In this document: one piece after another, positions 7,811 through 23,754 of the stretch | Layout: the number at the start of each line of letters is the position of its first letter | Numbering within the stretch: the stretch's first letter is position 1 | The notes under the pieces: generated by a model | What the model was told of the DNA's origin: nothing | The model's database searches: none | What the model saw: the letters and a program-made list of their open reading frames with translations, nothing else | DNA from: Nitrospinota bacterium | GTDB taxonomy: Bacteria; UBA8248 | DNA length: 24,258 bases | NCBI GenBank assembly: GCA_046581755.1 | Contig: JAYGFR010000093.1 | Location: 1 to 24,258 of the forward strand | Direction: 5' to 3' | Program-made: the position numbers and the translations under genes

Positions 7811-8446
7811 GTGGCTTCTCCTGGGAGCTTGGCTTTGGTAGTTCCGAAAAACCCCGCCCCAAAAAAGGCATTTACGACATTCGAAGTAGCGGATATCTGT
7901 GATGTGACCCCGGTGACGATTCAAAACTGGATCGATAAGGGATGGCTGCGGGCCTACAGGACGCCCGGCGGGCATCGCCGGGTTCTCCGGGATGATCTTC
8001 TGTCCTTTCTCGATTCCAGGAACATTCCTCATATTTTCAATGAGCGCATTGGGCCGCCTCAGATTCTCATCGTTGACGATGAGAAGAATTTCACCGAGTT
8101 GATGCGCGATATTCTTCTCTTGGACAATCCCGACTACGAAATCGAAATCGCGCACGACGGATTCCGGGCGGGCCTGCTCTACGGGAACAACAGGCCGGAT
8201 GTGGTGCTGCTCGACCTGATGCTTCCGGGCGTGGATGGTTTCGAGGTTTGCCGCCAGATCAAGCAGAGCACGGGCGGCGGCGATACCGTGGTCATAGCGG
8301 TGACCGGTCTGGACGATCCCTCGCATGAGGAGCGGATCATGAGCCTTGGCGCCTCCTACTTCATTCAGAAGCCGGCCGACACGGCGCATATCCGAGACCT
8401 TGTGCGCCAGACCATCGATGCGAAGGGCGCGCGCAACCCCTCCTGA
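7811..8446 (+). CDS. Response regulator: N-terminal excisionase/MerR-like HTH plus C-terminal receiver domain
   Basis: FTTFEVADICDVTPVTIQNWIDKGWLRAYRTPGGHRRV (HTH); ILIVDDE, PDVVLLDLMLPGVDGFEVC, VTG, QKP (receiver). Start may instead be TTG at 7835, after GGGAG. Confidence 0.92.
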   Translation: MASPGSLALVVPKNPAPKKAFTTFEVADICDVTPVTIQNWIDKGWLRAYRTPGGHRRVLRDDLLSFLDSRNIPHIFNERIGPPQILIVDDEKNFTELMRDILLLDNPDYEIEIAHDGFRAGLLYGNNRPDVVLLDLMLPGVDGFEVCRQIKQSTGGGDTVVIAVTGLDDPSHEERIMSLGASYFIQKPADTAHIRDLVRQTIDAKGARNPS

Positions 8447-8665: not shown

Positions 8666-9550
8666 TCAGGAATCCGCGTCACCGTTATTGCCGCGCTCCC
8701 GCTCGCGGAGGAAACGCTCGACTTCCCGGGCCACATCCTCGCCCGAGGGCAAACCGCCCGATTCTTCCTCCTCTTCTGTCTCGCTCCGGTGTTTGAGCTC
8801 CTCGACATATTCCTTGACCGCCTTGTTCGACTCCAGGGCCTGATCGACCTTGTCGTCGAAATCGGTCGAGCCGGTTTCCAGCTCGGAGACGTTCACGTCG
8901 ATCATGAGAAATTCCGAAAGCCGCCGGACCAGGGCGAGGGCGGCCTTGGGGTTGGGCGTTACGTTGACGTAATGGGGGACGTTCGCCCAGATGCTGACGG
9001 CGGGCAGGCTCTGGTCCTTGAACAGGTTGTTCAGGATTCCGACGATGCCCGTGGGGCCCTCGTATCCGGAGCGCTTCAGGCCCAGGCGCTCGGCCAGCTC
9101 CAGATTCGTGGAGGAGCCGGTAATCCGAACGGCGCTCCTGTGGTAGACGTCGGCAAGCAAGGCCCCCAGCGTGACCGCCATCCGCACGCCGCATTTTTGC
9201 GCGAGCGAGTAAATGATTTGGGTGAATTGCTTCCACTGGAGGTGGGGCTCGACCCCGACGAAAAGGATCAGGTCGTGGTCGTTATGGGGTGTCCGGCAGG
9301 CGTAAAAGGTGTTGCACGGCCAGGCGATCTGGCGCTGACCCTCCTCGTCCAGGCTGACGAGCGGCCGCGTGTCCTGAAAATTATAGAATATGTCGGATTC
9401 GATCGAGGCGAATTCCGAGCCGCCGAGCTCTTCGCGAATAAAGCTGGCGGCGGTGGTGGCCGCGTTGCTGGCATCGTTCCATCCCGAAAAAGCGAGCAAA
9501 AGGGTGGGACTCCGAAGATCGGGCATTTCCGTGATATGGATATAATCCAT
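8666..9550 (-). CDS. PAC2 family protein (proteasome assembly chaperone-like)
   Basis: ATG at 9550: MDYIHITEMPDLRSPTLLLAFSGWNDASNAAT...FYNFQDTRP...GVEPHLQW...TLGALLADVYH...YEGPTGIVG...WANVPHYV..PNPKA...LPSGEDVAREVERFLRE, the pattern of bacterial PAC2 proteins. Confidence 0.9.
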   Translation of the reverse strand: MDYIHITEMPDLRSPTLLLAFSGWNDASNAATTAASFIREELGGSEFASIESDIFYNFQDTRPLVSLDEEGQRQIAWPCNTFYACRTPHNDHDLILFVGVEPHLQWKQFTQIIYSLAQKCGVRMAVTLGALLADVYHRSAVRITGSSTNLELAERLGLKRSGYEGPTGIVGILNNLFKDQSLPAVSIWANVPHYVNVTPNPKAALALVRRLSEFLMIDVNVSELETGSTDFDDKVDQALESNKAVKEYVEELKHRSETEEEEESGGLPSGEDVAREVERFLRERERGNNGDADS

Positions 9551-9714
9551 CCCTTTGCCCCCTGTGGCCGGAAAGTTCCGGTGGAAGTAAAAAATATCGG
9601 CGGTGGAGTTTATTCTAAGCCCGGCGGGAAAAAGATTCAAAGCATAAAAAAAGGGGGCGCCCGAATCCCAGCGGGGGCACGGGTATCCGCGCGATCCGCC
9701 GCGGCGGCCCAATA

Positions 9715-9862: not shown

Positions 9863-10657
9863 GTGGATCCCTCAAACGGCTCCGAATCTCATTATCAGGG
9901 CAAGACCGCTTTAATCACGGGTGCGTCCCGGGGCATCGGCGGCGCCGTGGCGCGCCGCCTGGCCCGCGCGGGGGCGAATCTGGTGATCAATCACCGCGAG
10001 GCCCGTGGGCGTTCGGGGAAACTTGCCGAGGCCCTGTGCGCCGAGGCCGAGGCGGCGGGTGTGCGTGCGATATCGGTTCCGGCCGACATCGGCAAAAAAA
10101 AAGAGGTCGAGGCTCTTTTCTCGAAGGCGGAAGAGGCGTTCGGCCGGCTGGATTTTTTGGTGCTCAACGCCGCCCGGGCGCCGTTCAAGCCCTGGGAGAA
10201 GCTGCTCGAGCGCGACCTTCGCCAGTTGGTGGAGACGAACTACCTGGGCAACGTCTTTTGCATGCAGCAGGCTCTCGCGCCGCTTGCCCGCCAAGGAGGA
10301 GCGGTCGTTTTTTTGTCGAGCCTGGGCAGCCGCTTCGCCAACCCGGACTATCCCCTCGGGACGATGAAGGCCGCGATGGAGACTGCCGTGAAATACTGGG
10401 CGGAGGATTTCGGCGGCCGGGGAATTTCGGTGAACGCGGTGTGCGCGGGACTCGTAAAGACGGATTCGTTCAAGACGCTCCGGTTGGTCAACCCGGACCT
10501 GGATAATCTGCCCGAGCGGTTTTTCCTCTCCCCCGAGGAGGTGGCCGATGTCGTCCACTACCTCCTGGGCCCGGCGGGCCAGGTTATCCGGGGCCAAACG
10601 ATCGTGGCCGACAAGGGCGCGAGCAACCGCCTGCACTGGTCAACCCCGCCCGGATGA
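9863..10657 (+). CDS. SDR oxidoreductase, FabL-like enoyl-ACP reductase
   Basis: TGASRGIG, GRLDFLVLNAA, VFLSSLGS...Y-PLGTM-KAA, VNAVCAGLVKTDS. SSLGS and the long Tyr-Lys spacing resemble FabL rather than FabG. Start GTG 9863 preferred over 9764, but uncertain. Confidence 0.75.
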   Translation: MDPSNGSESHYQGKTALITGASRGIGGAVARRLARAGANLVINHREARGRSGKLAEALCAEAEAAGVRAISVPADIGKKKEVEALFSKAEEAFGRLDFLVLNAARAPFKPWEKLLERDLRQLVETNYLGNVFCMQQALAPLARQGGAVVFLSSLGSRFANPDYPLGTMKAAMETAVKYWAEDFGGRGISVNAVCAGLVKTDSFKTLRLVNPDLDNLPERFFLSPEEVADVVHYLLGPAGQVIRGQTIVADKGASNRLHWSTPPG

Positions 10658-10859
10658 TGCATTCTGAGCCGCGCATTTCAGGCGGCCGCGGAAGAAAAGA
10701 GGGTCCGGCCCCATTCGGAGCCTTTGGCCGGATCGGTTGGCCGGATCGTTTGAAATATTTCGAAGGGTTCCGGGATTTGCTATGGCATGAGCCGCCCCGG
10801 CCCTCCCAAAAGCCCGGACAATAGAGCCCGGAAGATGAAAGGTGTGCGAGGAGAATTAC

Positions 10860-11438
10860 ATGGAGCAGAACATAATCGGCGGCGATCGGATTATGCAGGA
10901 GGTCATGGACGCGATCGTCCATGCGACCGGAATCGACAAGGATTCCATCACCCCCGATAGCTCGCTGGTGGACGATTTGGACGTGCTGTCCCTGGATTTT
11001 CTGGACATGAATTTTCGGATCGAGCAGGTGTTCGGTGTGAAAATGGCGCGGAGCTTTGTCCTCGAGCACGTCGAGGAGATGTACGGCGAGGGGGTGGCCA
11101 TCGATGAGAATAACGAGGTGACCGAAAAGGGCGTGGAGATTCTTAGATTGCGCTTGAGCGAATCGGCGGACGGTCTCGAGGCGGGGACGCCCATGGACGA
11201 GCTTCCGGTCCTCGTCACCCCCCGGACGCTTTCCTCGGCGGTGAACGATATATTCGACAATCTTCCGGAAAAGAGCCCGGCCGGGGCGGATTGGAAAACC
11301 GAGGACGGCACCCATGTTGTCTGCTCCGAGACCGGCCAGTCCGCCGTATTGCCGAGCGGCGATGAGGTGGTTCAAAACTGGCTGGAGGCTCTCCAGGAAG
11401 AAAAGCAAATCTTTGGATCCCCATTTCCGCCCCCGTAG
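10860..11438 (+). CDS. Atypical long acyl carrier protein (192 aa), AcpXL-like core with insertion and C-terminal extension
   Basis: GAGGAG SD, ATG 10860. ITPDSSLVDDLDVLSLDFLDMNFRIEQVFGVKM, with the predicted phosphopantetheine Ser codon at 10989-10991. Very acidic. Confidence 0.85.
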   Translation: MEQNIIGGDRIMQEVMDAIVHATGIDKDSITPDSSLVDDLDVLSLDFLDMNFRIEQVFGVKMARSFVLEHVEEMYGEGVAIDENNEVTEKGVEILRLRLSESADGLEAGTPMDELPVLVTPRTLSSAVNDIFDNLPEKSPAGADWKTEDGTHVVCSETGQSAVLPSGDEVVQNWLEALQEEKQIFGSPFPPP

Positions 11439-11551
11439 TTCAAGACAGTAGTTCAAGACGGTAGATCAAGACCGTTTTTATAAGACAATATTTCTTGACG
11501 GTATTTTAAGGGGGTTATCAGGCCCGTATTTCAGGACGGTCGTTCAGGCCG
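11435..11551 (+). repeat. Degenerate 13-bp tandem array, 9 units
   Basis: GTAGTTCAAGACA GTAGTTCAAGACG GTAGATCAAGACC GTTTTTATAAGACA ATATTTCTTGACG GTATTTTAAGGGG GTTATCAGGCCC GTATTTCAGGACG GTCGTTCAGGCCG (117 bp = 9 x 13). Confidence 0.85.
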
Positions 11552-11587
11552 GTATCGCGCGCGAATTTTCCTCTGGAGCTTCGTCCC

Positions 11588-12898
11588 ATGGCCCGGCCCA
11601 CCAAACGCGTCGTCGTGACAGGCTATGGGATGATGACCCCGCTGGGCGGAGATGTCGCCACCACCTTCGAGGCGGCGCGCGAGGGCAAGTCCGGCATCGA
11701 TACCATCCGCCTGTTTGACCCCGAGAACCTCCCCTGCCGGATCGGCGGCGAGGTGGACGACGCCTGGATCGAGGCGCGCGAGGAATCCGCCCGGCGAAGG
11801 CTTCTCAAGTTCGCCTCGCGCGGGGTCCGCATGATGCTCATCGCCGCCGCAGAGGCCGCCGGGAGCGCCCGGTTGGACGAGGTGGCGGGTCGCGCGCGCG
11901 TCGGCGTCTCGGTCGGCTCGCACGGCGAGCACCCCGGCATCCCCCAAATGACCCAGCTCTTCCGCCAGTGGCGCCCCGGCGGAAACGGCCCCTGGGAGGG
12001 CAGGTGGGATTTCAGAGAGCTCTTCCGATCCGGAGGGTATGATTTTCTCCAGTTCTACCGGCGGAAAATCGATATAGCGGCATCGGTCGTCGCCACGGAG
12101 TTCGACGCGCAGGGCCCCTCCGTTTCGGTCTGCTCGGCCTGCTCGGCAGGGGGGCAGGCCGTGGGCGAGGCGCTCCGCCTCATCCGGGACGGAAAGGCCG
12201 ACGCGATGATCGCGGGCGGCTGCGATTCGGAGATCTCCTATGGCGGTTTTATGGGGTTTGTCCTGCTGACGGCGCTCTCCGAAAAATACGAGAGCCCGCA
12301 GAAAGCCTCGCGCCCCTTCGACCGGAGGCGCAACGGGTTCGTCATGTCCGAGGGGGCGGGCGCGCTCGTGCTCGAGGAGCTGGATCACGCGCTGGCGCGC
12401 AAGGCGCCGATCCTGGGCGAGGTGCTGGGCTACGGCGATTCGGCCGATGCCTTCCGCATCACCGATATGCACCCCAAGGGGGTCGGCGCCGTTCTTTCGA
12501 TGAGGCGTGCGCTGGAGGACGCCGGGGTCCAGGCGGCGGATGTGGACTACATCAACGCGCACGGCACATCCACGCCCAAGAACGACGTCACCGAGACCCT
12601 GGCAATCAAGGAGGTGTTCGGGGACCGGGCCGGCCGGGTTCCGATCAGCTCGAACAAATCCATGCTCGGCCACACCATCGGCGCGGCGGGGGCCATCGAG
12701 GCGGTGTTGTCGCTCGAGGGGATGCGCCGCTCGGAAATCCTCCCCACCATCAACTACGAGAACCCGGACCCAAAGTGCGATCTGGATTACGTGCCTAACG
12801 AGACGCGGGCCGCCGAACACAGGATCGTCCTCTCGAACAGCTTCGGATTCGGCGGGCAAAACGCCACGCTCTGCCTCGGCCGATACGAGGGAGAGTGA
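11588..12898 (+). CDS. Beta-ketoacyl-ACP synthase (FabF-like KS1, catalytically intact)
   Basis: RVVVTGYG, SAC*SAG (Cys codon 12140-12142), SRPFDRRRNGFVMSEGAG, YINAHGTST, SNKSMLGHTIGAAG, SNSFGFGGQN. Confidence 0.93.
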   Translation: MARPTKRVVVTGYGMMTPLGGDVATTFEAAREGKSGIDTIRLFDPENLPCRIGGEVDDAWIEAREESARRRLLKFASRGVRMMLIAAAEAAGSARLDEVAGRARVGVSVGSHGEHPGIPQMTQLFRQWRPGGNGPWEGRWDFRELFRSGGYDFLQFYRRKIDIAASVVATEFDAQGPSVSVCSACSAGGQAVGEALRLIRDGKADAMIAGGCDSEISYGGFMGFVLLTALSEKYESPQKASRPFDRRRNGFVMSEGAGALVLEELDHALARKAPILGEVLGYGDSADAFRITDMHPKGVGAVLSMRRALEDAGVQAADVDYINAHGTSTPKNDVTETLAIKEVFGDRAGRVPISSNKSMLGHTIGAAGAIEAVLSLEGMRRSEILPTINYENPDPKCDLDYVPNETRAAEHRIVLSNSFGFGGQNATLCLGRYEGE

Positions 12899-12902
12899 GG
12901 CG

Positions 12903-14183
12903 ATGCCCGCCGCTCTCGCCGTCACCGGGTCCGGCATGGTTACGGCGGCCGGAAGAGAGGTGGACGCAACCTGGAATGCGCTATGCGCCCGAAGGGGGTT
13001 TCTCGTCCCGGACGCCGATCCGGAGCTAGAGGGATTCTCGCCGATCGCCACGGCGCGGTGCGCCCCGATGGACCCGGAGTCGCTCGGCCTGGACCGCCGC
13101 GCGGCCCGCATCGCCGGGCACCCCACCCACCTTCTTCTCGCGGCGGTATCGGACGCGCTCCGGGAGGCCGGGATTGCCCCGGGGGCGGGGGCCGGCCTCG
13201 AAGATGCCAGCCTCGAAGATGAAGATACGGCTTTTTTCGCCGCGTTGGATTCGGTGGACCCCGGGGGCGGGGATCTGGTGTCCGCCGTCCAGGCCATGCG
13301 CCGGGCGGGCGGCGGGGAGGATTTCGGCGGATTCTTCTCGGAGGGCATGGCGCAGATTCCCCCGCTCTGGCCGCTCGCGATGCTGAACCCGATCGGGTTT
13401 TGCCAGGTCTCGATCCAGCTCGGTCTCCGGGGGGAGAACGGCCTTTTCAGTCCGGGTCCCGAGGCGGGCGCCCAGGCGATCATCGAGGCGGCCGAGGCGG
13501 TTCGCGAGGGAAAGGCCCGCGCGGCCGTGGCCGCCGGCGTGGGGACCGCCATTTCGGCCCGGTCGGTGGCCCGCTACCGGAAACAAAAATTGTTGCGAAA
13601 GGCCGAGGGGCCCGAAGCGGAATGGCCCCGGCCCTTTTCCGGGCGCGGCGCCGCCGCGCTGGGCGAGGGAGCGGGCGCCGCCGTCCTCGAGCCCCTCGAA
13701 GCCGCCCGGTCGGCGGGCAAACCGATTCAGGGTGCATTGACGGGGTGGGGCCGGGCCACCGCGTTGGAGGGCGCGGGTGGGCTCTCGGGAGCTATCCGGG
13801 AGGCGGCCCGCCGCGCGATGGAGGCGGTGGAGATCGGGCCGGGCCGGGTGTGCCTGGTCGTGACCCATGGCGCGGGAACGCCGGCGGAGGATGAGGCAGA
13901 GGCCGAGGCGCTCTCGGCCGTTTTGGAGGGGCATCGCCCCCGCGCCCTTGCGACAAAGGGCGCATTCGGCCACCTTTTGGGTGCGTCTCCGATTGTGGAT
14001 TTGCTGCTGGCGCTCCGGGCCCTGGCCGAGGGGGAGGTTCCGCCGAGCCCGGGGGCGGGATCGGCAGCGCGCGAGGTGATGGATTTTTCCCAAGGCCCGG
14101 TGGCCGCCGGAACGGGAGCGGCCCTGGTTTTGTCCCAGGGGTTCGGGGGAGCCTGCGCGGCGTTCGCCGCCGAGGCCCTCTGA
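12903..14183 (+). CDS. Ketosynthase-like protein lacking the catalytic Cys (KS2, chain-length-factor-like)
   Basis: ATG 12903 after GAGG. AVTGSG, PPLWPLAMLNP, GPEAGAQA (Pro at the Cys position, 13458-13460), RPF, LGEGAG, THGAGT, KGAFGHLLGA, QGFGG. Confidence 0.85.
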   Translation: MPAALAVTGSGMVTAAGREVDATWNALCARRGFLVPDADPELEGFSPIATARCAPMDPESLGLDRRAARIAGHPTHLLLAAVSDALREAGIAPGAGAGLEDASLEDEDTAFFAALDSVDPGGGDLVSAVQAMRRAGGGEDFGGFFSEGMAQIPPLWPLAMLNPIGFCQVSIQLGLRGENGLFSPGPEAGAQAIIEAAEAVREGKARAAVAAGVGTAISARSVARYRKQKLLRKAEGPEAEWPRPFSGRGAAALGEGAGAAVLEPLEAARSAGKPIQGALTGWGRATALEGAGGLSGAIREAARRAMEAVEIGPGRVCLVVTHGAGTPAEDEAEAEALSAVLEGHRPRALATKGAFGHLLGASPIVDLLLALRALAEGEVPPSPGAGSAAREVMDFSQGPVAAGTGAALVLSQGFGGACAAFAAEAL

Positions 14184-14209
14184 GCCGGTGCCGCCGGAGG
14201 GAGAGGATT

Positions 14210-14671
14210 TTGCGCTATCTATACATTGACCGCGTTACGGAAATCGAGAGCGGAAAGCGCATTTGCGGGGTCAAGACGTTTCCCCTCTCCGAGGCTTATT
14301 TCAAGGGGCATTTCTCGAAGGCGCCGCTGGTTCCGGGGTCGATCCTGATCGAGGCCATGTCCCAGATCACGGGCTGGCTGGTGGTCTACACCCACCGGTG
14401 CGAGACCTTTTGCGCGATCTCGATGATCCAAAATGCCACGCTGCCAACCGACCTCCGGGCGGGGACGACGGTCGAGCTCCACGGTGAATTGATGGACACC
14501 GACAAGAACTGGAGCCATTGCCGGGCCTGGGTGGAGCGGGACGGAGAGCGGATCGCGAGCGCGGATCGGTTCCTGTTCCCCCATTTCAAGGAGCAACGCC
14601 CCGAGGAAACCGCACAGTTCTACCGCGACATCGGCTGGCTCGAGCCCCGGTGGGACTGGAGGGCATCCTGA
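14210..14671 (+). CDS. FabZ/FabA-like 3-hydroxyacyl-ACP dehydratase (DH1)
   Basis: TTG start after a purine-rich SD. YIDRV, YFKGHFSKAPLVPGSILIEAMSQ (His/Glu dyad), hotdog-fold size. Stop overlaps the KS3 ATG (TGATG). Confidence 0.88.
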   Translation: MRYLYIDRVTEIESGKRICGVKTFPLSEAYFKGHFSKAPLVPGSILIEAMSQITGWLVVYTHRCETFCAISMIQNATLPTDLRAGTTVELHGELMDTDKNWSHCRAWVERDGERIASADRFLFPHFKEQRPEETAQFYRDIGWLEPRWDWRAS

Positions 14672-15945
14672 TGCCCCGCGAGGTTTGGATTACCGGAATG
14701 GGCATGGTGACGGCGCTGGGTGCGGATTTGAATACCTCTTGGAGCCGCGCCCTGGCGGGCAAGTCGGGGATTCGGGCCATATCCTCCTTCGAGGCGGATG
14801 AGATGCCCGTCGCGGGGGCCGGCGAGGTGGAGGACAGTGAACTCGAGTCCCTGCGCGAGCGGCTTCCCGGGGATCTGGCGGCCGAGCGGGAGCGGCGGGT
14901 GCTCTTCGCGCTCGACGCCGCCCGGAGCGCCCTCGCCGATGCGGGCCTGGCGCCGGGGGAGAGCGATCCTGCGCGCTCGGGCGTCGTCATGGGAGCCGGG
15001 TTGAGCACCTACCGGCTCGAGGATTTCGCGGCCTGGATTCCCCCGGGCGGCGGCTTCGAGGCGGCCCGGTTCGCGGCCGAGCTTGAGAAGACCCACCCGG
15101 GGGGATATTTTCAGAATCCGCCCGAGCGGGCGACATCGCTCATTTCGAAGTGGGCGGAATTTTCGGGGCCCTCGGCCACCCTGACCTCGGCGTGCGCGGC
15201 CGCGGGCCAGGCCATTGGATTGGGAATGCGGATGATCCGCCGGGGAGAGGCGGATCTCGTCCTCTGCGGCGGGGCGGACTCGATGATCAACCCGGTCGGG
15301 ATGGCGATCTTTTTGCTGCTCGGCGCGGCCTCCACGGCGGCGGTGGAGTCGGCGGCGCTGTGCCGCCCGTTCGACCGGCGGCGCTCGGGGCTCGTGGTCG
15401 GAGAGGGGGCGGGGATGCTGGTTTTGGAGTCGGCCGATCGCGCCGCCCGGCGCGGGGCGCGCGTCCATGCCCGGCTTCTGGGCTATGGTTCGAGCATGGA
15501 CGCCTACCGGGTGACGGCGCCGGACCCGGCGGGCCGGGGGGCCGTCCGCTCGATGCGCGGGGCGCTCCGGGATGCCGGGATGGCGCCCGAGGAGATCGCC
15601 TATGTCAACGCACACGGGACGGGGACCCGGCTGAACGATCCGGCCGAGACGCGGGCGATCAAGGAGGTGTTCGGGGAATCGGGGGCCCGGCTCGCCGTGA
15701 GCTCGACGAAGCCGTTGATCGGCCACCTGATAGCCGCCTGCGGCGCCCCCGAGTTGATTTTCACGGCGCTCAGCGTGGCCCGCGATGAGGTGCATCCCAC
15801 CCTGAATTTGGAGAATCCCGATCCCGGGTGCGATCTGGATTATGTTTCGGGCGAGGCGCGGAAAATGGCGGTGCCCGCCGCGATTTCCAATTCGTTCGGG
15901 TTCGGCGGTCAAAACGCAACCCTTGTCGTGGGAAAGGCGGCCTAG
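14671..15945 (+). CDS. Beta-ketoacyl-ACP synthase (FabF-like KS3, catalytically intact)
   Basis: ATG 14671. VWITGMG, TSAC*AAAGQA (Cys codon 15193-15195), CRPFDRRRSGLVVGEGAG, YVNAHGTGT, STKPLIGHL, SNSFGFGGQN. Confidence 0.93.
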   Translation: MPREVWITGMGMVTALGADLNTSWSRALAGKSGIRAISSFEADEMPVAGAGEVEDSELESLRERLPGDLAAERERRVLFALDAARSALADAGLAPGESDPARSGVVMGAGLSTYRLEDFAAWIPPGGGFEAARFAAELEKTHPGGYFQNPPERATSLISKWAEFSGPSATLTSACAAAGQAIGLGMRMIRRGEADLVLCGGADSMINPVGMAIFLLLGAASTAAVESAALCRPFDRRRSGLVVGEGAGMLVLESADRAARRGARVHARLLGYGSSMDAYRVTAPDPAGRGAVRSMRGALRDAGMAPEEIAYVNAHGTGTRLNDPAETRAIKEVFGESGARLAVSSTKPLIGHLIAACGAPELIFTALSVARDEVHPTLNLENPDPGCDLDYVSGEARKMAVPAAISNSFGFGGQNATLVVGKAA

Positions 15946-16698
15946 ATGAACATCGATTTGAGCGGAAAGGTGGCGCTCGTCACCGGGGGCGGCCGGGGCA
16001 TCGGCCGGGCCTGCTGTCTCGCCCTGGCCGAGGCCGGCGCGGCGGTGGCGATCAACTACAGCGCCTCGGAGGAGGCGGCGGAGGAGGTGCGGGCCGCCAT
16101 CGAAGAGGGCGGCGGCCGGGCCGCAACCTACCGGGCGGACGTTTCCTCTTTCGAGCTGGTCGGGTCGATGTTCGAGGCGCTGAAGGAAGACTTCGCTGCC
16201 CTGGACATCCTCGTGAACAACGCGGGCGTCATCAAGGACACCCTTCTTTTCCGGATGAAGCCGGCCGACTGGGACAAGGTCATCGGGGTGAGCCTGAACG
16301 GCGTCTACAACTGCACGAAGATGGCGGCCGAGATCATGATGCGCGCGCGCACCGGGTGTGTGATCAATATCGCCTCGGTGATCGGACTCATGGGCGGCGC
16401 GGGGCAGACCAACTACGCCGCCGCCAAGGCCGGGGTCATCTCGTTCACCCGCGCCTGCGCGGCCGAGATGAGCGGGCGCGGGATCCGCTTCAACGCGGTT
16501 TTGCCTGGGATGATCGAAACGGACATGAGCAAGGCTGTCCGCAGGCGTGCGAGCGATAAGGTCTTGGAGCGGATTCCCTCGAAGCGCTTCGGCCAGCCGG
16601 AGGATGTGGCGGGCGTGGTGGTTTTTCTGGCTTCTCCCGCCGCCAGCTATATCAACGGCGAGGCCATCGCCGTGGACGGGGGCATGCATATCGGCTAG
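15946..16698 (+). CDS. fabG: 3-oxoacyl-ACP reductase
   Basis: TGGGRGIG, ILVNNAGVIKD, NIASVIG, GQTNYAAAKAG (YxxxK), PGMIETDM, VDGG. Starts immediately after the KS3 stop. Confidence 0.92.
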   Translation: MNIDLSGKVALVTGGGRGIGRACCLALAEAGAAVAINYSASEEAAEEVRAAIEEGGGRAATYRADVSSFELVGSMFEALKEDFAALDILVNNAGVIKDTLLFRMKPADWDKVIGVSLNGVYNCTKMAAEIMMRARTGCVINIASVIGLMGGAGQTNYAAAKAGVISFTRACAAEMSGRGIRFNAVLPGMIETDMSKAVRRRASDKVLERIPSKRFGQPEDVAGVVVFLASPAASYINGEAIAVDGGMHIG

Positions 16699-16714
16699 TC
16701 GCCGGGGAGCGGGC

Positions 16715-17122
16715 GTGCGGATATACCAGGGCGTTGATTTGATCGAGATTGACCGGCTCCGGGCGGCCTATGATCGCCAGGAGGCGTTCGGACGGGACAT
16801 CTACACCGAGGCCGAGCTGGCCTACTGCACCGCCCGGCCCGATCCCTATCCGCATCTTGCCGGGCGGTTCGCCGCCAAGGAGGCATGCCTGAAAGCCTTC
16901 GGCGTGGGGATGGGCGGGTTCGGGGCCACCGGGCGTTTCCGGGAGATCGAGATCGAGTCCACCCCCTCGGGAAAGCCCGTCCTCCAGCTGCACGGGTCGA
17001 TGGAAAAAATGGGCCGGAGGCTGAAAATCCGGCAGATGACCGTTTCGATTAGCCATGCCGACAGTTTTGCCGTCGCCATGGTCATTCTCATGGGCGAGGC
17101 CACGGCCGGAGAGGAAGAATAG
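16715..17122 (+). CDS. acpS: Holo-ACP synthase (AcpS-type phosphopantetheinyl transferase)
   Basis: GTG 16715 after GGGGAG. GVDLIEIDR, LAGRFAAKEACLKAFG, SGKP, VSISH. Confidence 0.93.
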   Translation: MRIYQGVDLIEIDRLRAAYDRQEAFGRDIYTEAELAYCTARPDPYPHLAGRFAAKEACLKAFGVGMGGFGATGRFREIEIESTPSGKPVLQLHGSMEKMGRRLKIRQMTVSISHADSFAVAMVILMGEATAGEEE

Positions 17123-17131
17123 AGGAGCCGC

Positions 17132-17584
17132 ATGCGCTATTTGATGGTGGACCGGGTGACATCGTGGGAGAGCGGAAAGTCCATGGAAGGGGTGAAGAAC
17201 GTCACCCTGAGCGAGGATTATCTCGAATTTCATTTTCCCCGGTTTCCGGTCATGCCTGGCTCGATGATCCTCGAGGCGCTCATCCAGCTCTCGGGGTGGC
17301 TCGAGGCCGCGAGCTCGGGGTTTTCGCGCTGGTTCCTGCTCGATCAGGTCCGGAGCGTCAAGTATTACGGCTTCGCCCTTCCGGGAGATCAGATCGAACT
17401 CCGGGTCGAGGCGGCCGGAGAAGAAGAGGGCCGACGCCTCTACAAGGGGCTCGCCTCCATCGGGGGCGAGCGCAATGTGGCCGTGGACTTCGCGGGCCGG
17501 GTGGCGGACCTGGCCGGCTATGAGGACCCCGGGGAGCAGGAGCGCCTTTTTCAAATCCTCACGCGCGCCATCACGCTGTCTTGA
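17132..17584 (+). CDS. FabZ-like 3-hydroxyacyl-ACP dehydratase (DH2)
   Basis: AGGAG SD. MVDRV, KNVTLSEDYLEFHFPRFPVMPGSMILEALIQ (His/Glu dyad), PGDQI. Confidence 0.9.
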   Translation: MRYLMVDRVTSWESGKSMEGVKNVTLSEDYLEFHFPRFPVMPGSMILEALIQLSGWLEAASSGFSRWFLLDQVRSVKYYGFALPGDQIELRVEAAGEEEGRRLYKGLASIGGERNVAVDFAGRVADLAGYEDPGEQERLFQILTRAITLS

Positions 17585-17594
17585 GCGGGTAGCC

Positions 17595-18896
17595 ATGACC
17601 GAAGGCAGGGAAGTCTGGATCACGGGCGCCGGGATGCTTTCCCCGATCGGGAGCGGTGTGGATGCGAACTGGGAGGCCGTCCGCGGCGGCGGGTGCGGGG
17701 TCGAGCGCCATCCCCAGGGGGAGGGGCCGCCGCTTCCGGAGAATTTCCTTTACTTCGGCGCCGTCGAGGGATACGGGGAGCCCCCCGTCGTTCCTCCCAA
17801 GCTGAACAGCCAGCGCAAATTCCTGAACCGCTCCTCGATTCTCGGCCTGCACGCCGTCCAGGAGGCGGTCGAGAGTTCGGGAGCCGACCTTTTCGACATT
17901 CCCGCCGGCCGGAAGGCCCTGTATGTCGGTTCGGGCGATTTTACGCGGATCGAGTACCTCGATTTTTACTCCGCCTTCGCCCAAAGTTCGGGCCCCGATC
18001 TCGCGCCCACCGATCCCGGGGTCTTGAACGAAAAGGCGCTCTACCAGGTGAACCCGTTCTACCTTCTCGAGGGCCTGACGAACAATATGTTCAGCTTCCT
18101 CTCGGCGCGCTACGAGATCATGGGAACGAACGGCTCCCTGACGAGCCTGTCCTCGTGCGGGGCGCAGGCGCTGGAGATGTGCGACCGGGCCATCCGCTGG
18201 AACAAGGCGGATTTGGGCCTCGTGGTGAGCTGCGGGTCCTGGATCGGCGAGTTGATCCGCTTCGAGCTGGACGGGCTGGGGATTCTCTCCCGCGCCTCCG
18301 CCGGGGCCGATTCGTTCCGCCCCCTCGACCGTCGGCGGGACGGATTTTTTCCGGCCGAGGGGGCGGCGGTTCTCGTCCTCGAGGCGGCGGATTCCGCCCG
18401 GGCGCGCGGGGCGCGGCCGATGGGGCGGGTTCGGGGAACGGGGAATTTCCAGGAAGTCGTCTCGCGGAGCCATATCGCGGTTCCCTTCGAAGCGGTGGCC
18501 AGGGCCTGCCGCTCGGCGATGAGCGAGGCGGAAATGGAAACCTCCGCTCTCTCGTTCGTCCTCCCCCACGGGAGCGGGACGAAAATGGGCGACCGCCTGG
18601 AGATGCGGGCGGTGAAGGATTTCCTGGGCGACGGCGCGGACAAGGTGCCCCTGGCCGCCTGGAAGCCCTATACCGGCCACATGGGTTCGGCGAGCGACAT
18701 CGGCGAAATCATCCTCGGGCTCCGCGCCCTCGCGGAGGGGGTGCTCCCGCCCACGCCGGGGTTCGAGCGGGCCGAAGCCGAATTCGAGGTTCTCGATGTC
18801 GTGGCCTCGGAGCGCCCGGTGGGGGGAGAGGCCTTCCTCTCGCTGAGCCACGGCCTCGGGGGCCAGGCCTCCGCCACTCTCCTTTCGGCGCCGTGA
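17595..18896 (+). CDS. Ketosynthase-like protein with Ser at the catalytic Cys position (KS4)
   Basis: ATG 17595. VWITGAG, NPFYLLEGLTNNM, SLS*SCGAQA (Ser codon 18150-18152), FRPLDRRRDGFFPAEGAA, PHGSGT, KPYTGHMG, HGLGGQ. Confidence 0.87.
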   Translation: MTEGREVWITGAGMLSPIGSGVDANWEAVRGGGCGVERHPQGEGPPLPENFLYFGAVEGYGEPPVVPPKLNSQRKFLNRSSILGLHAVQEAVESSGADLFDIPAGRKALYVGSGDFTRIEYLDFYSAFAQSSGPDLAPTDPGVLNEKALYQVNPFYLLEGLTNNMFSFLSARYEIMGTNGSLTSLSSCGAQALEMCDRAIRWNKADLGLVVSCGSWIGELIRFELDGLGILSRASAGADSFRPLDRRRDGFFPAEGAAVLVLEAADSARARGARPMGRVRGTGNFQEVVSRSHIAVPFEAVARACRSAMSEAEMETSALSFVLPHGSGTKMGDRLEMRAVKDFLGDGADKVPLAAWKPYTGHMGSASDIGEIILGLRALAEGVLPPTPGFERAEAEFEVLDVVASERPVGGEAFLSLSHGLGGQASATLLSAP

Positions 18897-19933
18897 GCCC
18901 TTCCGCGTGGCGGGGCCCCCGCTCCCGCGAAAAACGCCGCCGCAGCAAGGACAAAATCCCCCTCCGCCAGACGGCCGAATTTTTCCTCGTCTACTCTTTC
19001 CTTTCCCTCGTCCGGTGGATGCCGTTTTGGCTGTGCCGGGGGGTGGCCCGGGCCGCCGGCGCCGCGCTCTTCTGGTTCGTGCCGCGCCGCCGCCGCGTTT
19101 TGATGATGAATCTCGGGATCGCGTTTCCCGAAATGAGCGAAGCCGGGCGGGGCCGGATGGCGCGGGCGAGCTGCGAGTCGTTCATTTTGACCGGAATAGA
19201 GAGCGTGAAGTATCTCTACCGGTTCCGGATGGAAAAAGCGGCGGATGAGGTCCGCCGGATGGTCGAGGGGGTGGACACCCTCCTGGCGCGCGCCCGCCGG
19301 GTCCACGATGAATCGGGCGGGTGTATCTTCGTGGTGCCTCACCTGGGGAACTGGGAGATCATCACCCACGGCGCCGCGGCCGCCGGGATCCCGGTGACGG
19401 TCGTCGTGCGCCCCCTCGACAACCCCAAGCTCGAAAAGCACCTTTTCGCGATGCGCTCGGAAACGGGTATGGAGATTCTCGCCAAGCGAAACGCGGTGTT
19501 CCACCTGCGTACGGCGCTCCGCAAGGGCCGCTCGGTCGGCCTTTTGGCCGATCAGCACGCCGGGATGAAGGGCATCGATGTCCCGTTTTTCGGAAAACCC
19601 GCCAGCACGACGACGGGCCCGGCGGTCCTGGCCCTCACGTTCGGCCGCCCGATCATGCTGGTCAGCTGCATCCGGCGCATCGCCGGGCGGAAATACGAGG
19701 TGCTTCTGGGCGATCCGATTTTCCCGGACACCGGGGCGGATTCGGTGGAGGAGATCGAGCGGCTCACCGCGCTCATGAACCGCGGGATTGAAAATCTCGT
19801 CCGACAGTGCCCGGACCAGTATCTCTGGCTGCATGACCGCTGGAAGCTGACCAAGCTCTGGGGCCGCTCGGAGTCGTTCCTGGTCGAAAAGGAAAAAGAA
19901 GAGGAAGCGAAGAAAAACGCGCCGGAGGACTAG
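18893..19933 (+). CDS. LpxL/HtrB-family (lipid A late acyltransferase-like) acyltransferase
   Basis: GTG at 18893 overlaps the KS4 TGA. N-terminal hydrophobic helix, NLGIAFPE, PHLGNWE (H-x4-E), RPLDNP, LLADQ, VPFFG, PDQYLWLHDRWK. Confidence 0.9.
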   Translation: MSPSAWRGPRSREKRRRSKDKIPLRQTAEFFLVYSFLSLVRWMPFWLCRGVARAAGAALFWFVPRRRRVLMMNLGIAFPEMSEAGRGRMARASCESFILTGIESVKYLYRFRMEKAADEVRRMVEGVDTLLARARRVHDESGGCIFVVPHLGNWEIITHGAAAAGIPVTVVVRPLDNPKLEKHLFAMRSETGMEILAKRNAVFHLRTALRKGRSVGLLADQHAGMKGIDVPFFGKPASTTTGPAVLALTFGRPIMLVSCIRRIAGRKYEVLLGDPIFPDTGADSVEEIERLTALMNRGIENLVRQCPDQYLWLHDRWKLTKLWGRSESFLVEKEKEEEAKKNAPED

Positions 19934-20328
19934 GCGGAGGTTTTCGCGGATCTCTCGAGCGCGGCGAAGAAGCGCCCGCCTATGCGCTCCAGCTTGGCTT
20001 TGAGTTTTTCGGTGCAATCGCAATCGCCGCAGAAAGGATAGCCCTCGCATTTTTCGAGCGTCGTCGTATAGCGGATGTCGATGTCCTCGAAAAACTCCCG
20101 CCAGTAAGGCAGCTCCTCGAGAAGCTCCCCGCCCGGGCCGAAGGCCTCGCGACGATAGCAGACCTCGATCCAGCGCACCTGGCCACCCTCGAGGAGGCGC
20201 GCGCCGCGCATGCATTTCTCGTAGGTGGGATAGGCGATCGAACCGCGCCCGAGGGAGCCGGATTCGATCGCTTCGAGCAGCGCGTGCTCTTTACCCGCTT
20301 TCACGCGGGCCCGGACCAGATAGCGCAT
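19930..20328 (-). CDS. Hypothetical protein with C-terminal Cys cluster
   Basis: GGAG SD, ATG 20328: MRYLVRARVK...LGRGSIA...WIEVCY...LPYWREFF...CEGYPFCGDCDCT. Protein-like composition. Convergent CTAG overlap with the acyltransferase stop. Confidence 0.75.
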   Translation of the reverse strand: MRYLVRARVKAGKEHALLEAIESGSLGRGSIAYPTYEKCMRGARLLEGGQVRWIEVCYRREAFGPGGELLEELPYWREFFEDIDIRYTTTLEKCEGYPFCGDCDCTEKLKAKLERIGGRFFAALERSAKTSA

Positions 20329-20462
20329 GGGAGGGTCTCCAAAACGGGGGCCGACCAATCCCGGCCCCGGCAGAATTGGGGCCATCGGTTCCGGCCCCCG
20401 CGTATACCCTGCGCGCCCATTCTACCATGGAACGGCGCCGGGCCGGCGAAGGAGGCAAGCCG

Positions 20463-21974: not shown

Positions 21975-22128
21975 GCGTCCGTTTTTTGCTAGAATATTTC
22001 TATTGCCAATTTATCGCTACCGAACCGGCATCACCGGATGGGCGGATACCCGCCGACGAATCCGGATCGTGCGCGCGGACCTGTTCCGCCGGTTCGGTCC
22101 TGTTCCGCCTTTTCGAGGGAGGCGCATC

Positions 22129-23754
22129 ATGCCCGATCGTTCCGTCAATTTTTCTCCCCTGAGCCCACTGGGTTTTTTAGAGCGCAACAGTTGGGTCTAC
22201 AAGGAAAAGGAAGCGGTGGTCTACGGGGCGCGCCGCTTTACCTACGGAGAGTTCGCCGGCCGGGTCCAGGCCTGCGCGGCGGCCCTGAAGGCGGCGGGGG
22301 TGGGGCCGGGGGACCGGGTCGCTTATCTTTCGCCCAACATTCCGCCCATGCTCGAGGCGCACTTTGCGGTTCCCCTCATCGGGGCCGTTCTGGTGGCCAT
22401 CAACATCCGCCTCTCGCCGGACGAGATCGCCTACATCTGCTCCCATTCGGGGGCCAAGGTGCTCGCCGCCGACGCCGAGTGGGCCACGCCGCTGGCCGCC
22501 CATGCCGGCAAGTTCCCTAAAATCGAGAAGTTCGTGAACATCCTCGATGCGGAGGCCGGATTCGGGCCCGGAGACGGCGCCTTCGACGGCCCCGGTTACG
22601 AGGAGTTCATCGCCTCGCCGGGAGGCGGGGACCTGCCCTGGAAAACCGGGGACGAGCTCTCGCCCATTTCGATCAACTACACCAGCGGGACGACGGGCCG
22701 CCCCAAGGGGGTGGTCTACACCCACCGGGGGGCCTACCTGAACGCCCTGGGCGAAATGATCGAGGTGGGCGGCTCGGTCTACATGAACTACCTCTGGACG
22801 CTGCCAATGTTTCACTGCAACGGCTGGTGCTACACCTGGGGGGTGACGGCCCTCGGGGGGCGGCACGTGTGTCTCCGCGCCAACCAGCCGGCCGAAATTT
22901 TTCGGCTCATCCGGGAGGAGAAAATATCCCATTTCTGCGCCGCGCCCACCGTCCTCATCGGCCTGGCGAACGATCCGGCGGCGAAAGAGGGCCCCTTTCC
23001 CCAGCCTGTCACTATCATGACGGCGGGCGCTCCGCCCTCGCCGACCATCATCTCGGCCATGGAGGAGGAGCTCGGGGCCACGGTCGTCCACGGCTACGGC
23101 CTCACCGAGACCTACGGTCCCCACACCGTTTGCGCCTGGCATCCCGAGTGGGACGATCTGCCCGCGGGTGAGCGGGCCCGCCTCAAGGCCCGCCAGGGGG
23201 TTCCCTTCGTGATGACCGGCGAGTGCGAGGTGAAGGACAAGGACATGGCCGGGACGCCCTGGGACGGCAAGACCCAGGGCGAGGTCATGATGCGCGGAAA
23301 CAACGTGATGGCCTCCTACTTCGATAACCCCGAGGCCACCCTGGAGGCCTTCGAGGGAGGCTGGTTCCACAGCGGGGACATCGGCGTCGCGCACGCGGAC
23401 GGCTACATCGACCTGAAGGACCGGGCGAAGGACATCATCATCTCGGGGGGCGAGAACATCTCCACCATCGAGGTCGAAAAGGCCATTGCCTCGCACGAGT
23501 CCGTCCTCGAGGTGGCCGTGGTCGCCGTGCCGGACGAGAAGTGGGGGGAGGTTCCCAAGGCGTTCGTCGTCAAAAAACAGGGGGCCGACGTGAGCGGGGA
23601 TGACCTCATCGAATACGTCAAGGGCCGGATCGCACGCTTCAAGGCCCCCAAATATGTCGAGTTCGGCGACCTTCCCAAGACGGCCACCGGGAAGATTCAA
23701 AAATTCAAGCTCCGCGAGAAGGAATGGGCCGGCCGGGAAAAACGCGTGAATTAG
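22129..23754 (+). CDS. Acyl-CoA synthetase / AMP-binding ligase
   Basis: GAGGGAGG SD, ATG 22129. INYTSGTTGRPKGV, WTLPMFHCNGW, HGYGLTETYGP, GWFHSGD, DRAKDIIISGGENISTIEVE, LPKTATGKIQK. Confidence 0.95.
   Translation: MPDRSVNFSPLSPLGFLERNSWVYKEKEAVVYGARRFTYGEFAGRVQACAAALKAAGVGPGDRVAYLSPNIPPMLEAHFAVPLIGAVLVAINIRLSPDEIAYICSHSGAKVLAADAEWATPLAAHAGKFPKIEKFVNILDAEAGFGPGDGAFDGPGYEEFIASPGGGDLPWKTGDELSPISINYTSGTTGRPKGVVYTHRGAYLNALGEMIEVGGSVYMNYLWTLPMFHCNGWCYTWGVTALGGRHVCLRANQPAEIFRLIREEKISHFCAAPTVLIGLANDPAAKEGPFPQPVTIMTAGAPPSPTIISAMEEELGATVVHGYGLTETYGPHTVCAWHPEWDDLPAGERARLKARQGVPFVMTGECEVKDKDMAGTPWDGKTQGEVMMRGNNVMASYFDNPEATLEAFEGGWFHSGDIGVAHADGYIDLKDRAKDIIISGGENISTIEVEKAIASHESVLEVAVVAVPDEKWGEVPKAFVVKKQGADVSGDDLIEYVKGRIARFKAPKYVEFGDLPKTATGKIQKFKLREKEWAGREKRVN

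Follow-up and report, generated by a model that had tools for sequence, protein, structure and literature searches.

A probable accessory type II fatty acid synthase operon with an oversized acyl carrier protein and an LpxL-family acyltransferase in a Nitrospinota bacterium

INTRODUCTION

Papers on the acylation of lipid A with very-long-chain fatty acids describe a route via the rhizobial acpXL genes, and the available parts of PMC11901934, PMC5613085, and PMC4402001 set out the cluster concerned, acpXL-fabZXL-fabF2XL-fabF1XL-adhA2XL-lpxXL. Two further systems bear on the present work. One is cluster I of anammox bacteria (amxACP, amxFabZ, and amxFabF2/amxFabFmut), also described in the accessible text of PMC2649909, for which the viewable part of a preprint (bioRxiv 10.64898/2026.05.19.726425) reports that a heterodimer of an active and an inactive FabF decarboxylates malonyl-acyl carrier protein (malonyl-ACP). 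The other is the aryl-polyene system, a highly reducing type II polyketide synthase (PKS), with an ApeO-ApeC heterodimer and a two-gene dehydratase (DH) according to the excerpted text of PMC8358021. Here, we describe an 11-gene operon at positions 9863 to 19933 of a 24,258-nucleotide stretch of DNA (the window) from a Nitrospinota bacterium (GTDB lineage UBA8248; contig JAYGFR010000093.1, assembly GCA_046581755.1). The operon encodes an enoyl reductase-like protein (ER), an ACP, two predicted active ketosynthases (KS1 and KS2), two ketosynthases without the catalytic Cys (KS*1 and KS*2), two DHs, a ketoreductase (KR), AcpS, and an LpxL-family acyltransferase, here called LpxL (Table 1). On balance, our data favor an accessory type II synthase that would build a probably very long, mostly reduced chain on an oversized ACP, for transfer to lipid A by LpxL. 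No description of the operon or of its ACP was found in the open-access literature, as covered by titles and the starts of abstracts, with subscription journals mostly uncovered.

RESULTS

The source genome (G000; 96.5% complete) carries a housekeeping operon, plsX-fabH-fabD-acpP-fabF, on contig C179, and a FabZ outside the cluster is encoded on contig C344, within an lpx block. This separate fab operon indicates that the cluster is accessory and not housekeeping; the concern that it might be the only fatty acid synthase (FAS) locus of the genome, raised in a first-pass annotation of this DNA, is thereby answered. fabG was missing from the operon on C179 and from seven of seven further host-family fab operons, and it lay upstream of acpP in all 10 outgroup operons. 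In the source genome, the top TIGR01830 match was the cluster KR, with 295 bits versus 235 for the next (cut-off, 298), and this KR was the only match at an E value of ≤1e-78 in 10 of 10 family-type genomes; a separate FabG above the cut-off was present in 22 of the 24 other cluster-bearing genomes. Likewise, there was one phosphopantetheinyl transferase (PPTase) match in the source genome, AcpS, which is the sole PPTase in 7 of 10 family-type genomes, and LpxL is the single PF03279 gene in the source genome and in all 10 further family-type genomes. KR, AcpS, and LpxL thus likely also serve ordinary lipid synthesis in the host family. The cluster had been called self-contained, a description that has to be amended, because FabD is encoded elsewhere and KR, AcpS, and LpxL apparently double as the sole FabG, PPTase, and late acyltransferase.

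Six host-family genomes lacked the ACP, one of which is 67% complete and retains the other genes. In the remaining five (G068 and G077 to G080; 90 to 98% complete), KR-AcpS-LpxL was kept between the flanking genes of the window, with 183 to 323 bp in place of the window's 6.4 kb. Eight of the 11 genes are gone from these genomes: ACP, ER, and all four cluster KSs were not found, and one KS remains in each. lpxB is still present, and the retained AcpS is the sole PPTase match in all five. In G068, just ahead of LpxL, the first part of DH2 continues in frame into approximately the last 20 residues of KS*2 (matched by eye), a fusion that reads as a deletion scar. In the LpxL tree, G068 is placed apart from the other four genomes, which share a genus, so the module was probably lost twice. 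This pattern suggests an essential housekeeping role for KR, AcpS, and LpxL, a dispensable module made up of the other eight genes, and an LpxL that does not depend on the special chain. The deletion genomes parallel rhizobial acpXL mutants in retaining the acyltransferase without the special carrier; in such mutants, LpxXL is thought to transfer C16 or C18 chains instead (available text of PMC5613085; mutant behavior also in that of PMC11901934). The alternative that the cluster is simply the ordinary FAS of the cell is therefore very improbable and survives only for KR and AcpS. It would fit the presence in the cluster of the source genome's best FabG and only AcpS and the failure to find FabI there, but AcpP, FabF, FabH, FabD, and PlsX are encoded on C179 and FabZ on C344, and the five relatives do without the eight genes, save for the fusion remnant in one.

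At 192 amino acids (aa), the ACP is more than twice the normal size, which the first-pass annotation had overlooked. It combines an AcpXL-type serine motif with an insertion of approximately 50 aa ahead of the last core helix and a distinctive C-terminal tail. Two CxxC motifs were found in the tails of 30 of 33 homologs from outside the host family versus none of 34 family-type homologs, and a wider profile search recovered a four-cysteine tail in 37 of 51 matches of 170 to 215 aa, including Nocardia and Pseudomonas proteins. As judged from these sequences, the tail is derived from a zinc ribbon whose cysteines were lost in the host family. The best NCBIfam match of the ACP was the AcpXL family (PRK06508), at 48.2 bits and under the cut-off of 83, while Shinella AcpXL scores 190; identity was 45% over 51 aa to Shinella AcpXL versus 22% to the source genome's own AcpP. 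The best PDB matches were AcpXL (2kw2 first) and AcpM, both carriers of very long chains, and an enlarged ACP cavity is the explanation published for AcpXL in the part of PMC4402001 available. The window ACP's own structural model was weak (predicted local distance difference test [pLDDT] score, 63.8), and a Foldseek search with it gave no match at an E value of ≤0.001. The predicted structure of a relative, P0038 (pLDDT, 93), was an interrupted ACP fold with its longest structural alignment to AcpXL (97 residues; Z, 9.8; root mean square deviation, 3.5). ESM Atlas matches were confined to unnamed PP-binding clusters. Zinc-ribbon ACPs also occur in cultured bacteria, namely, Nocardia brasiliensis (P0063) and Pseudomonas spp. 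(P0085 cluster). A plasmid of Streptomyces sp. NBC_01003 (L077:5690-13786) encodes a 137-aa insertion-type ACP together with AcpS, two KSs, a KS-KS didomain, and a KS III.

The special chain likely goes to lipid A, which the first-pass annotation had proposed alongside another glycolipid. In one operon, the cluster unites a dedicated ACP, DH, KS/KS*, and an LpxL-family gene, within a genome that encodes lipid A synthesis: contig C344 carries the Raetz pathway block bamA-lpxD-fabZ-lpxA-gnnA-lpxI-lpxB-kdtA-lpxK, and from known pathways GnnA points to a diamino-glucose lipid A. The best NCBIfam match of LpxL, the only enzyme of its family there, was the LpxXL family (PRK06553), at 137.6 bits and below the cut-off of 273, with 30% identity to Shinella LpxXL. 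Our trees, of KSs as well as LpxLs, were quick searches with SH-aLRT support only, and from the LpxL trees 9 near-duplicate rows were left out under LG+C20 and 9 more under LG+G4. The cluster LpxLs of several phyla formed one clade (SH-aLRT, 99 to 100), distinct from the sister-family LpxLs, which adjoin the lpx operon in three sister families.

Linkage to lpx genes was found in Nitrospirota, where 14 genomes had ER-ACP-KS1 alone at the locus searched. In 13 of them, KS*2 was located elsewhere, in a second half comprising KS*1-DH1-KS2-KR-AcpS-DH2-KS*2-LpxL, whole or in part. LpxL was followed by lpxB on the same strand, 0.1 to 3.1 kb apart, in 9 of these 13 genomes, and in a tenth, a single chromosome, an lpxB fragment lies behind LpxL. 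The ER-ACP-KS1 half was situated one gene past gnnA-gnnB in 8 of the 14 genomes, with the whole lpxD-fabZ-lpxA-lpxI block in four. As these genomes are kin, the linkage counts as a few events and not as nine. In G003 (contig C1), an lpxB fragment behind a full lpxL and an lpxL C-terminal fragment before a full lpxB were seen near positions 595,000 and 1,019,200, likely the scar of a rearrangement.

The operon resembles the rhizobial acpXL cluster in its dedicated ACP with the same serine motif, its FabZ-type DHs, an active and an inactive FabF, a reductase, a terminal LpxL-family enzyme, and the lack of FabH and FabD. It differs in that its ACP has 192 aa versus 93, in having four KSs and two DHs, in carrying KR and AcpS, and in using a short-chain dehydrogenase/reductase (SDR)-type reductase where the rhizobial cluster has the alcohol dehydrogenase-type AdhA2XL; moreover, its KS* proteins retain His-Lys-His, residues that Shinella FabF2XL has lost. 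Family models for AcpXL, FabF1XL, FabF2XL, and LpxXL were validated on the Shinella acpXL cluster, which passed all four, whereas none of the window's proteins reached any of these cut-offs: KS1 and KS2 scored 360 and 281 bits on FabF1XL (PRK06501; cut-off, 629), and KS*1 and KS*2 scored 30 and 41 bits on FabF2XL (PRK06519; cut-off, 320). The operon works like the rhizobial acpXL-lpxXL system, whose product is a C26 to C30 (omega-1)-hydroxy chain on lipid A, but going by these scores, it is not a member. The first-pass annotation was right to name the acpXL system as the closest analogy, AcpXL and LpxXL being the top NCBIfam families, but its picture of a doubled acpXL cluster is not supported as it stands, in view of the four missed cut-offs, the four old KS clades described below, and the KS* histidines, which FabF2XL lacks.

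Nor did the operon match the anammox or the aryl-polyene cluster in full, the markers of both being undetected. Anammox cluster I shares with it a special ACP, FabZ, an active/inactive FabF pair, and the absence of FabH from the cluster; the window operon differs by ending in LpxL and by having two KS pairs, the match of amxACP (89 residues in 7auf) is confined to the ACP core, and the anammox markers (radical SAM and phytoene dehydrogenase-like proteins) were absent among the 25 window proteins scanned. The usual aryl-polyene gene set includes two ACPs, a starter ligase, a thioesterase, and LolA/MMPL export genes. As far as the source text available goes, the aryl-polyene system (ApeO/ApeC, ApeR, two-gene DH, and ApeQ) is similar in its KS with an inactive partner, two DH genes, KR, and more than one active KS. 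The window differs in its enoyl reductase-like gene, single ACP, and full-length KS* proteins (426 and 433 aa), ApeC being about half size. A starter ligase, a thioesterase, and LolA/MMPL export genes were all absent from the operon, and no LolA or MMPL gene was found in the window; an AMP-ligase gene at 22003 to 23754 is not part of the operon, nor is it a conserved neighbor. An unannotated cluster on a chromosome-sized replicon of Photobacterium sp. DA100 (NZ_CP119424.1; L075:14971-29078) shares the gene order ACP-KS-KS*-KS-KS*. Its ACP is of the insertion type, it further encodes a 978-aa class III aminotransferase, two SDRs, KR, and LolA-like and MMPL proteins, and its second KS groups with KS2 (support, 97). 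Thus, the ACP/KS chassis also serves other ends.

Among homologs, the Cys-His-Lys-His active site was retained in 62 of 62 KS1 and 48 of 48 KS2 sequences. In KS*1 homologs, Cys is replaced by Ala, Pro, or Ser, and the two His residues are kept in 43 and 40 of 46; of 49 KS*2 homologs, 48 carry Ser in place of the catalytic Cys, and 48 retain both His residues. KS1, KS2, KS*1, and KS*2 fell into four separate clades (SH-aLRT, 100, 98, 94, and 100, respectively), with the KS1 and KS2 clades outside housekeeping FabF, so that in this tree the four KSs represent four old lineages. There was no supported grouping with FabF1XL or FabF2XL; two KS/KS* pairs are present, but the phylogeny does not support reading them as a doubling. 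In five Rokubacteria genomes, KS*1 was not found and KS2 had no clear ortholog (the best match, 44%, sits in another cluster), while KS*2 remains with KS1 in the clusters of this type. Residual covariation across 31 genomes was highest for KS2/KS*1 (r, 0.49; jackknife, 0.45 to 0.56), compared with 0.30 for KS2/KS*2 and 0.22 for KS1/KS*2. Only KS2/KS*1 stands out in this analysis, as the pairs are not independent and KS1/KS*2 ranks under KS2/KS*2. Nonetheless, from the joint loss and the covariation taken together, the predicted pairs are likely KS2/KS*1 and KS1/KS*2, which are not adjacent genes.

For the reduction steps, ER scored best on FabL (NCBIfam PRK08063), at 178 bits and below the cut-off of 328, and had PDB 3oic as its best PDB match (E value, 2e-37). 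ER homologs have Y-x5-K in 62 of 64 sequences and Y-x6-K, the FabL motif, in none of 64. ER directly precedes ACP in 67 of 68 loci (see below) and was not found in any of the five deletion genomes; this position and its loss with the pathway fit a regular use in the cycle. The catalytic His and Glu are retained in 51 of 51 DH1 and 52 of 52 DH2 homologs. Two DHs had been taken to mark a two-stage synthesis, but Rokubacteria-type clusters hold both DHs with a single KS/KS* pair, so the DHs do not mark two stages. FabI was detected in none of 34 cluster genomes and none of the five deletion genomes (best E value in the latter, 1e-18), and FabK-like matches under the cut-off occurred in 9 of 22 genomes. 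The deletion genomes lack a FabL-like gene too, and no housekeeping enoyl-ACP reductase was evident in the source genome and its relatives; an unrecognized reductase or fatty acid uptake may account for this.

These features bear on a rival reading, in which the lipid A chain is special in chemistry and not in length. The chain would be of medium length and unsaturated, polyene, or hydroxylated, produced in the manner of a highly reducing type II PKS, and the FabL-like enzyme would take part in some cycles only. The KS/KS* pairs, two FabZ-type DHs, and KR do resemble the aryl-polyene machinery (PMC8358021, excerpted text), both DHs persist with one KS pair, and the ER motif is atypical. Set against this are the position of ER before ACP and its loss with the pathway, as well as an operon free of aryl-starter ligase, thioesterase, LolA, and MMPL genes, and we consider this rival unlikely.

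Alignment of the ACP yielded 68 loci among 168 pattern matches. All 11 genes in the same order were present in 28 of the 68 loci, and a further 20 had the same order broken by a contig end, which argues that the operon order is not due to chance. Thirteen loci had ER-ACP-KS1 only, two were without AcpS (one of them also without KR), and five, of the Rokubacteria/Methylomirabilota type, had ER-ACP-KS1-DH1-KR(-DH2-KS*2). The record titles of the loci named Nitrospinota/Tectomicrobia, Nitrospirota, NC10/Rokubacteria, Desulfobacterota, and Acidobacteriota, so that the 11-gene order recurs in several phyla; close homologs were labeled, e.g., Nitrospinota or "Candidatus Tectomicrobia." Within the source phylum, the ACP was present in 36 of 51 genomes, including 35 of the 41 other host-family members and none of the 9 outside the host family. 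Searches of plasmids for KS*2 and LpxL turned up no close copies. In an NC10 locus (L041:19224-20546), a condensation-domain protein that could be a further acyltransferase follows LpxL, and in three LpxL-less loci of the Rokubacteria type (L063:7943-9085, L064:1946-3070, and L065:7943-9067), a GNAT-family gene and an NAD-dependent epimerase gene lie ahead of ER.

A profile scan of the window identified eleven intact + strand open reading frames at 9863 to 19933, each with its expected Pfam family, in the order SDR, PP-binding, KS, KS, FabA/Z, KS, SDR, ACPS, FabA/Z, KS, and Lip_A_acyltrans (Table 1). The DH1/KS2 junction has a 1-nucleotide (nt) overlap (TGATG), KS2 and KR abut, and KS*2 and LpxL overlap by 4 nt (GTGA); the remaining intergenic gaps measure 4 to 26 nt, except for ER-ACP (202 nt) and ACP-KS1 (149 nt). 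FabH, FabD, PlsX, thioesterase, cyclase, radical SAM, and methyltransferase families were absent among the 25 window proteins scanned. The first-pass annotation had thus read correctly the 11 co-oriented genes and their order, the overlapping or abutting stop/start codons, and the missing families. Beta-branching, considered because of the Cys-to-Ser KS, was ruled out, as the window contains no HMG-CoA synthase or enoyl-CoA hydratase family. A promoter and terminator scan remained at chance level (2 versus 1.1 expected and 11 versus 9.6 expected). Marine metatranscriptome contigs of 165 to 299 nt from three runs of three studies, with 0 to 5 differences (shares of words, 0.08 to 0.32), mapped to cluster genes and flanks alike; as DNA carry-over is possible, we did not take them as evidence of transcription. 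A 13-nt tandem repeat of 2.9 copies (window 11435 to 11472) begins at the ACP stop codon, and a related run has a 26-nt insertion near position 11517. On the flanks, a protein without a Pfam or NCBIfam match (19930 to 20385, - strand), convergent on lpxL, occupies the same place in 24 of the 68 loci and in all five deletion genomes. A PAC2-family (proteasome assembly chaperone-like) gene (8666 to 9712, - strand), divergent from the operon, adjoins it in 27 of the 68 loci, and a gene joining an excisionase-type helix-turn-helix to a response-regulator receiver (7811 to 8446, + strand) is kept upstream of PAC2 in the host family.

Table 1. Genes of the operon and their predicted products (window coordinates)
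Feature	Position	Strand	Remarks
ER, FabL-like SDR	9863..10657	+	Predicted dedicated enoyl-ACP reductase; Y-x5-K motif
ACP, 192 aa, specialized	10860..11438	+	PF00550; best NCBIfam match AcpXL
KS1, predicted active, FabF-like	11588..12898	+	Cys-His-Lys-His
KS*1, Cys-less, Pro at catalytic Cys	12903..14183	+	His-Lys-His retained
DH1, FabZ-type dehydratase	14210..14671	+	PF07977
KS2, predicted active, FabF-like	14671..15945	+	Cys-His-Lys-His
KR, FabG-type	15946..16698	+	Top TIGR01830 match of source genome
AcpS	16715..17122	+	Sole phosphopantetheinyl transferase match in source genome
DH2, FabZ-type dehydratase	17132..17584	+	32% identity to DH1
KS*2, Cys-to-Ser	17595..18896	+	His-Lys-His retained
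LpxL-family acyltransferase	18893..19933	+	Sole PF03279 match in source genome

DISCUSSION

In the pathway that we propose, AcpS would prime the ACP, and FabD of the housekeeping operon would load malonyl groups. Two KS/KS* heterodimers, likely KS1/KS*2 and KS2/KS*1, would elongate the chain in relay, with the Cys-less KS* proteins, in which His-Lys-His is retained, shaping the chain tunnel; by analogy with the anammox heterodimer, they may also decarboxylate malonyl-ACP and thereby provide a starter in place of FabH. Reduction in each cycle would fall to KR, to DH1 and DH2, which may form a single heteromeric dehydratase, and to the FabL-like enzyme, and LpxL would attach the chain to a diamino-glucose lipid A as its secondary acyl group. 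The observations behind this scheme are gene content, active-site residues, copy numbers, lpx linkage, and the pattern of loss, from which the enzymatic steps and a long, reduced chain are inferred; we hold great length to be less certain than lipid A as acceptor.

Several observations weigh against this reading. The structural match of the P0038 ACP to AcpXL ties with those to further ACPs, among them that of anammox bacteria (Z, 10.1), and the predicted enoyl reductase role of ER is unproven, given its score below the cut-off and its atypical motif. LpxL and LpxXL were sisters under LG+G4 (support, 82) but not under LG+C20. The five Rokubacteria/Methylomirabilota-type clusters have no adjoining LpxL (four seen past KS*2 and one cut by the contig end); the LpxL-family genes of these genomes are located elsewhere and do not belong to the cluster clade. 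The LpxL ortholog of "Candidatus Magnetominusculus" is on a separate contig, and no LpxL was found in the Photobacterium DA100 stretch with its aminotransferase and MMPL exporter. Finally, LpxL persists without the special ACP in the five deletion genomes, so its membership in the operon is no proof that it uses the special chain.

Some of these points favor a different scheme, in which the ACP/KS module serves another acceptor (an amino-lipid, a glycolipid, or an exported metabolite) while LpxL, KR, and AcpS are housekeeping and LpxL uses acyl-AcpP. Besides the retention of LpxL after deletion of the module, it can draw on the Rokubacteria-type clusters, which have no adjoining LpxL and, in the three loci scanned, a GNAT-family gene upstream, and on the occurrence of the same ACP family in Nocardia, Pseudomonas, and the metabolite-like Photobacterium cluster. 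It is countered by LpxL being coinherited with the module across phyla, in a clade of its own unlike the sister-family LpxLs, by both halves of the split Nitrospirota cluster adjoining lpx genes, and by the lack of an alternative release enzyme in the operon. We therefore regard another acceptor as a doubtful explanation and retain lipid A as the preferred one. A bolder and rather improbable extension is that the zinc-ribbon ACP with its four KSs represents an undescribed class of type II synthase, in which the histidine-keeping KS* proteins act as catalytic decarboxylases and not as passive chain-length factors, and a chemically new chain is made, longer than C30 or regularly hydroxylated or unsaturated, which would go to lipid A in deep-branching bacteria and into exported amines in the Photobacterium type.

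If the reading as a lipid A-directed synthase holds, the cluster would add a more elaborate second route to very-long-chain acylation of lipid A, found in Nitrospirota, Methylomirabilota, Desulfobacterota, and the lineage labeled Nitrospinota/Tectomicrobia, almost only in uncultured genomes. It would predict a lipid A structure as yet unknown and a possible lineage biomarker. For studies of FabH-free chain initiation, the operon also provides an ACP of new architecture and KSs that lack Cys but have intact histidines. In the host family, it appears as an accessory operon that has taken over the duties of FabG, AcpS, and LpxL, and natural deletions there set the essential genes apart from those that are dispensable.

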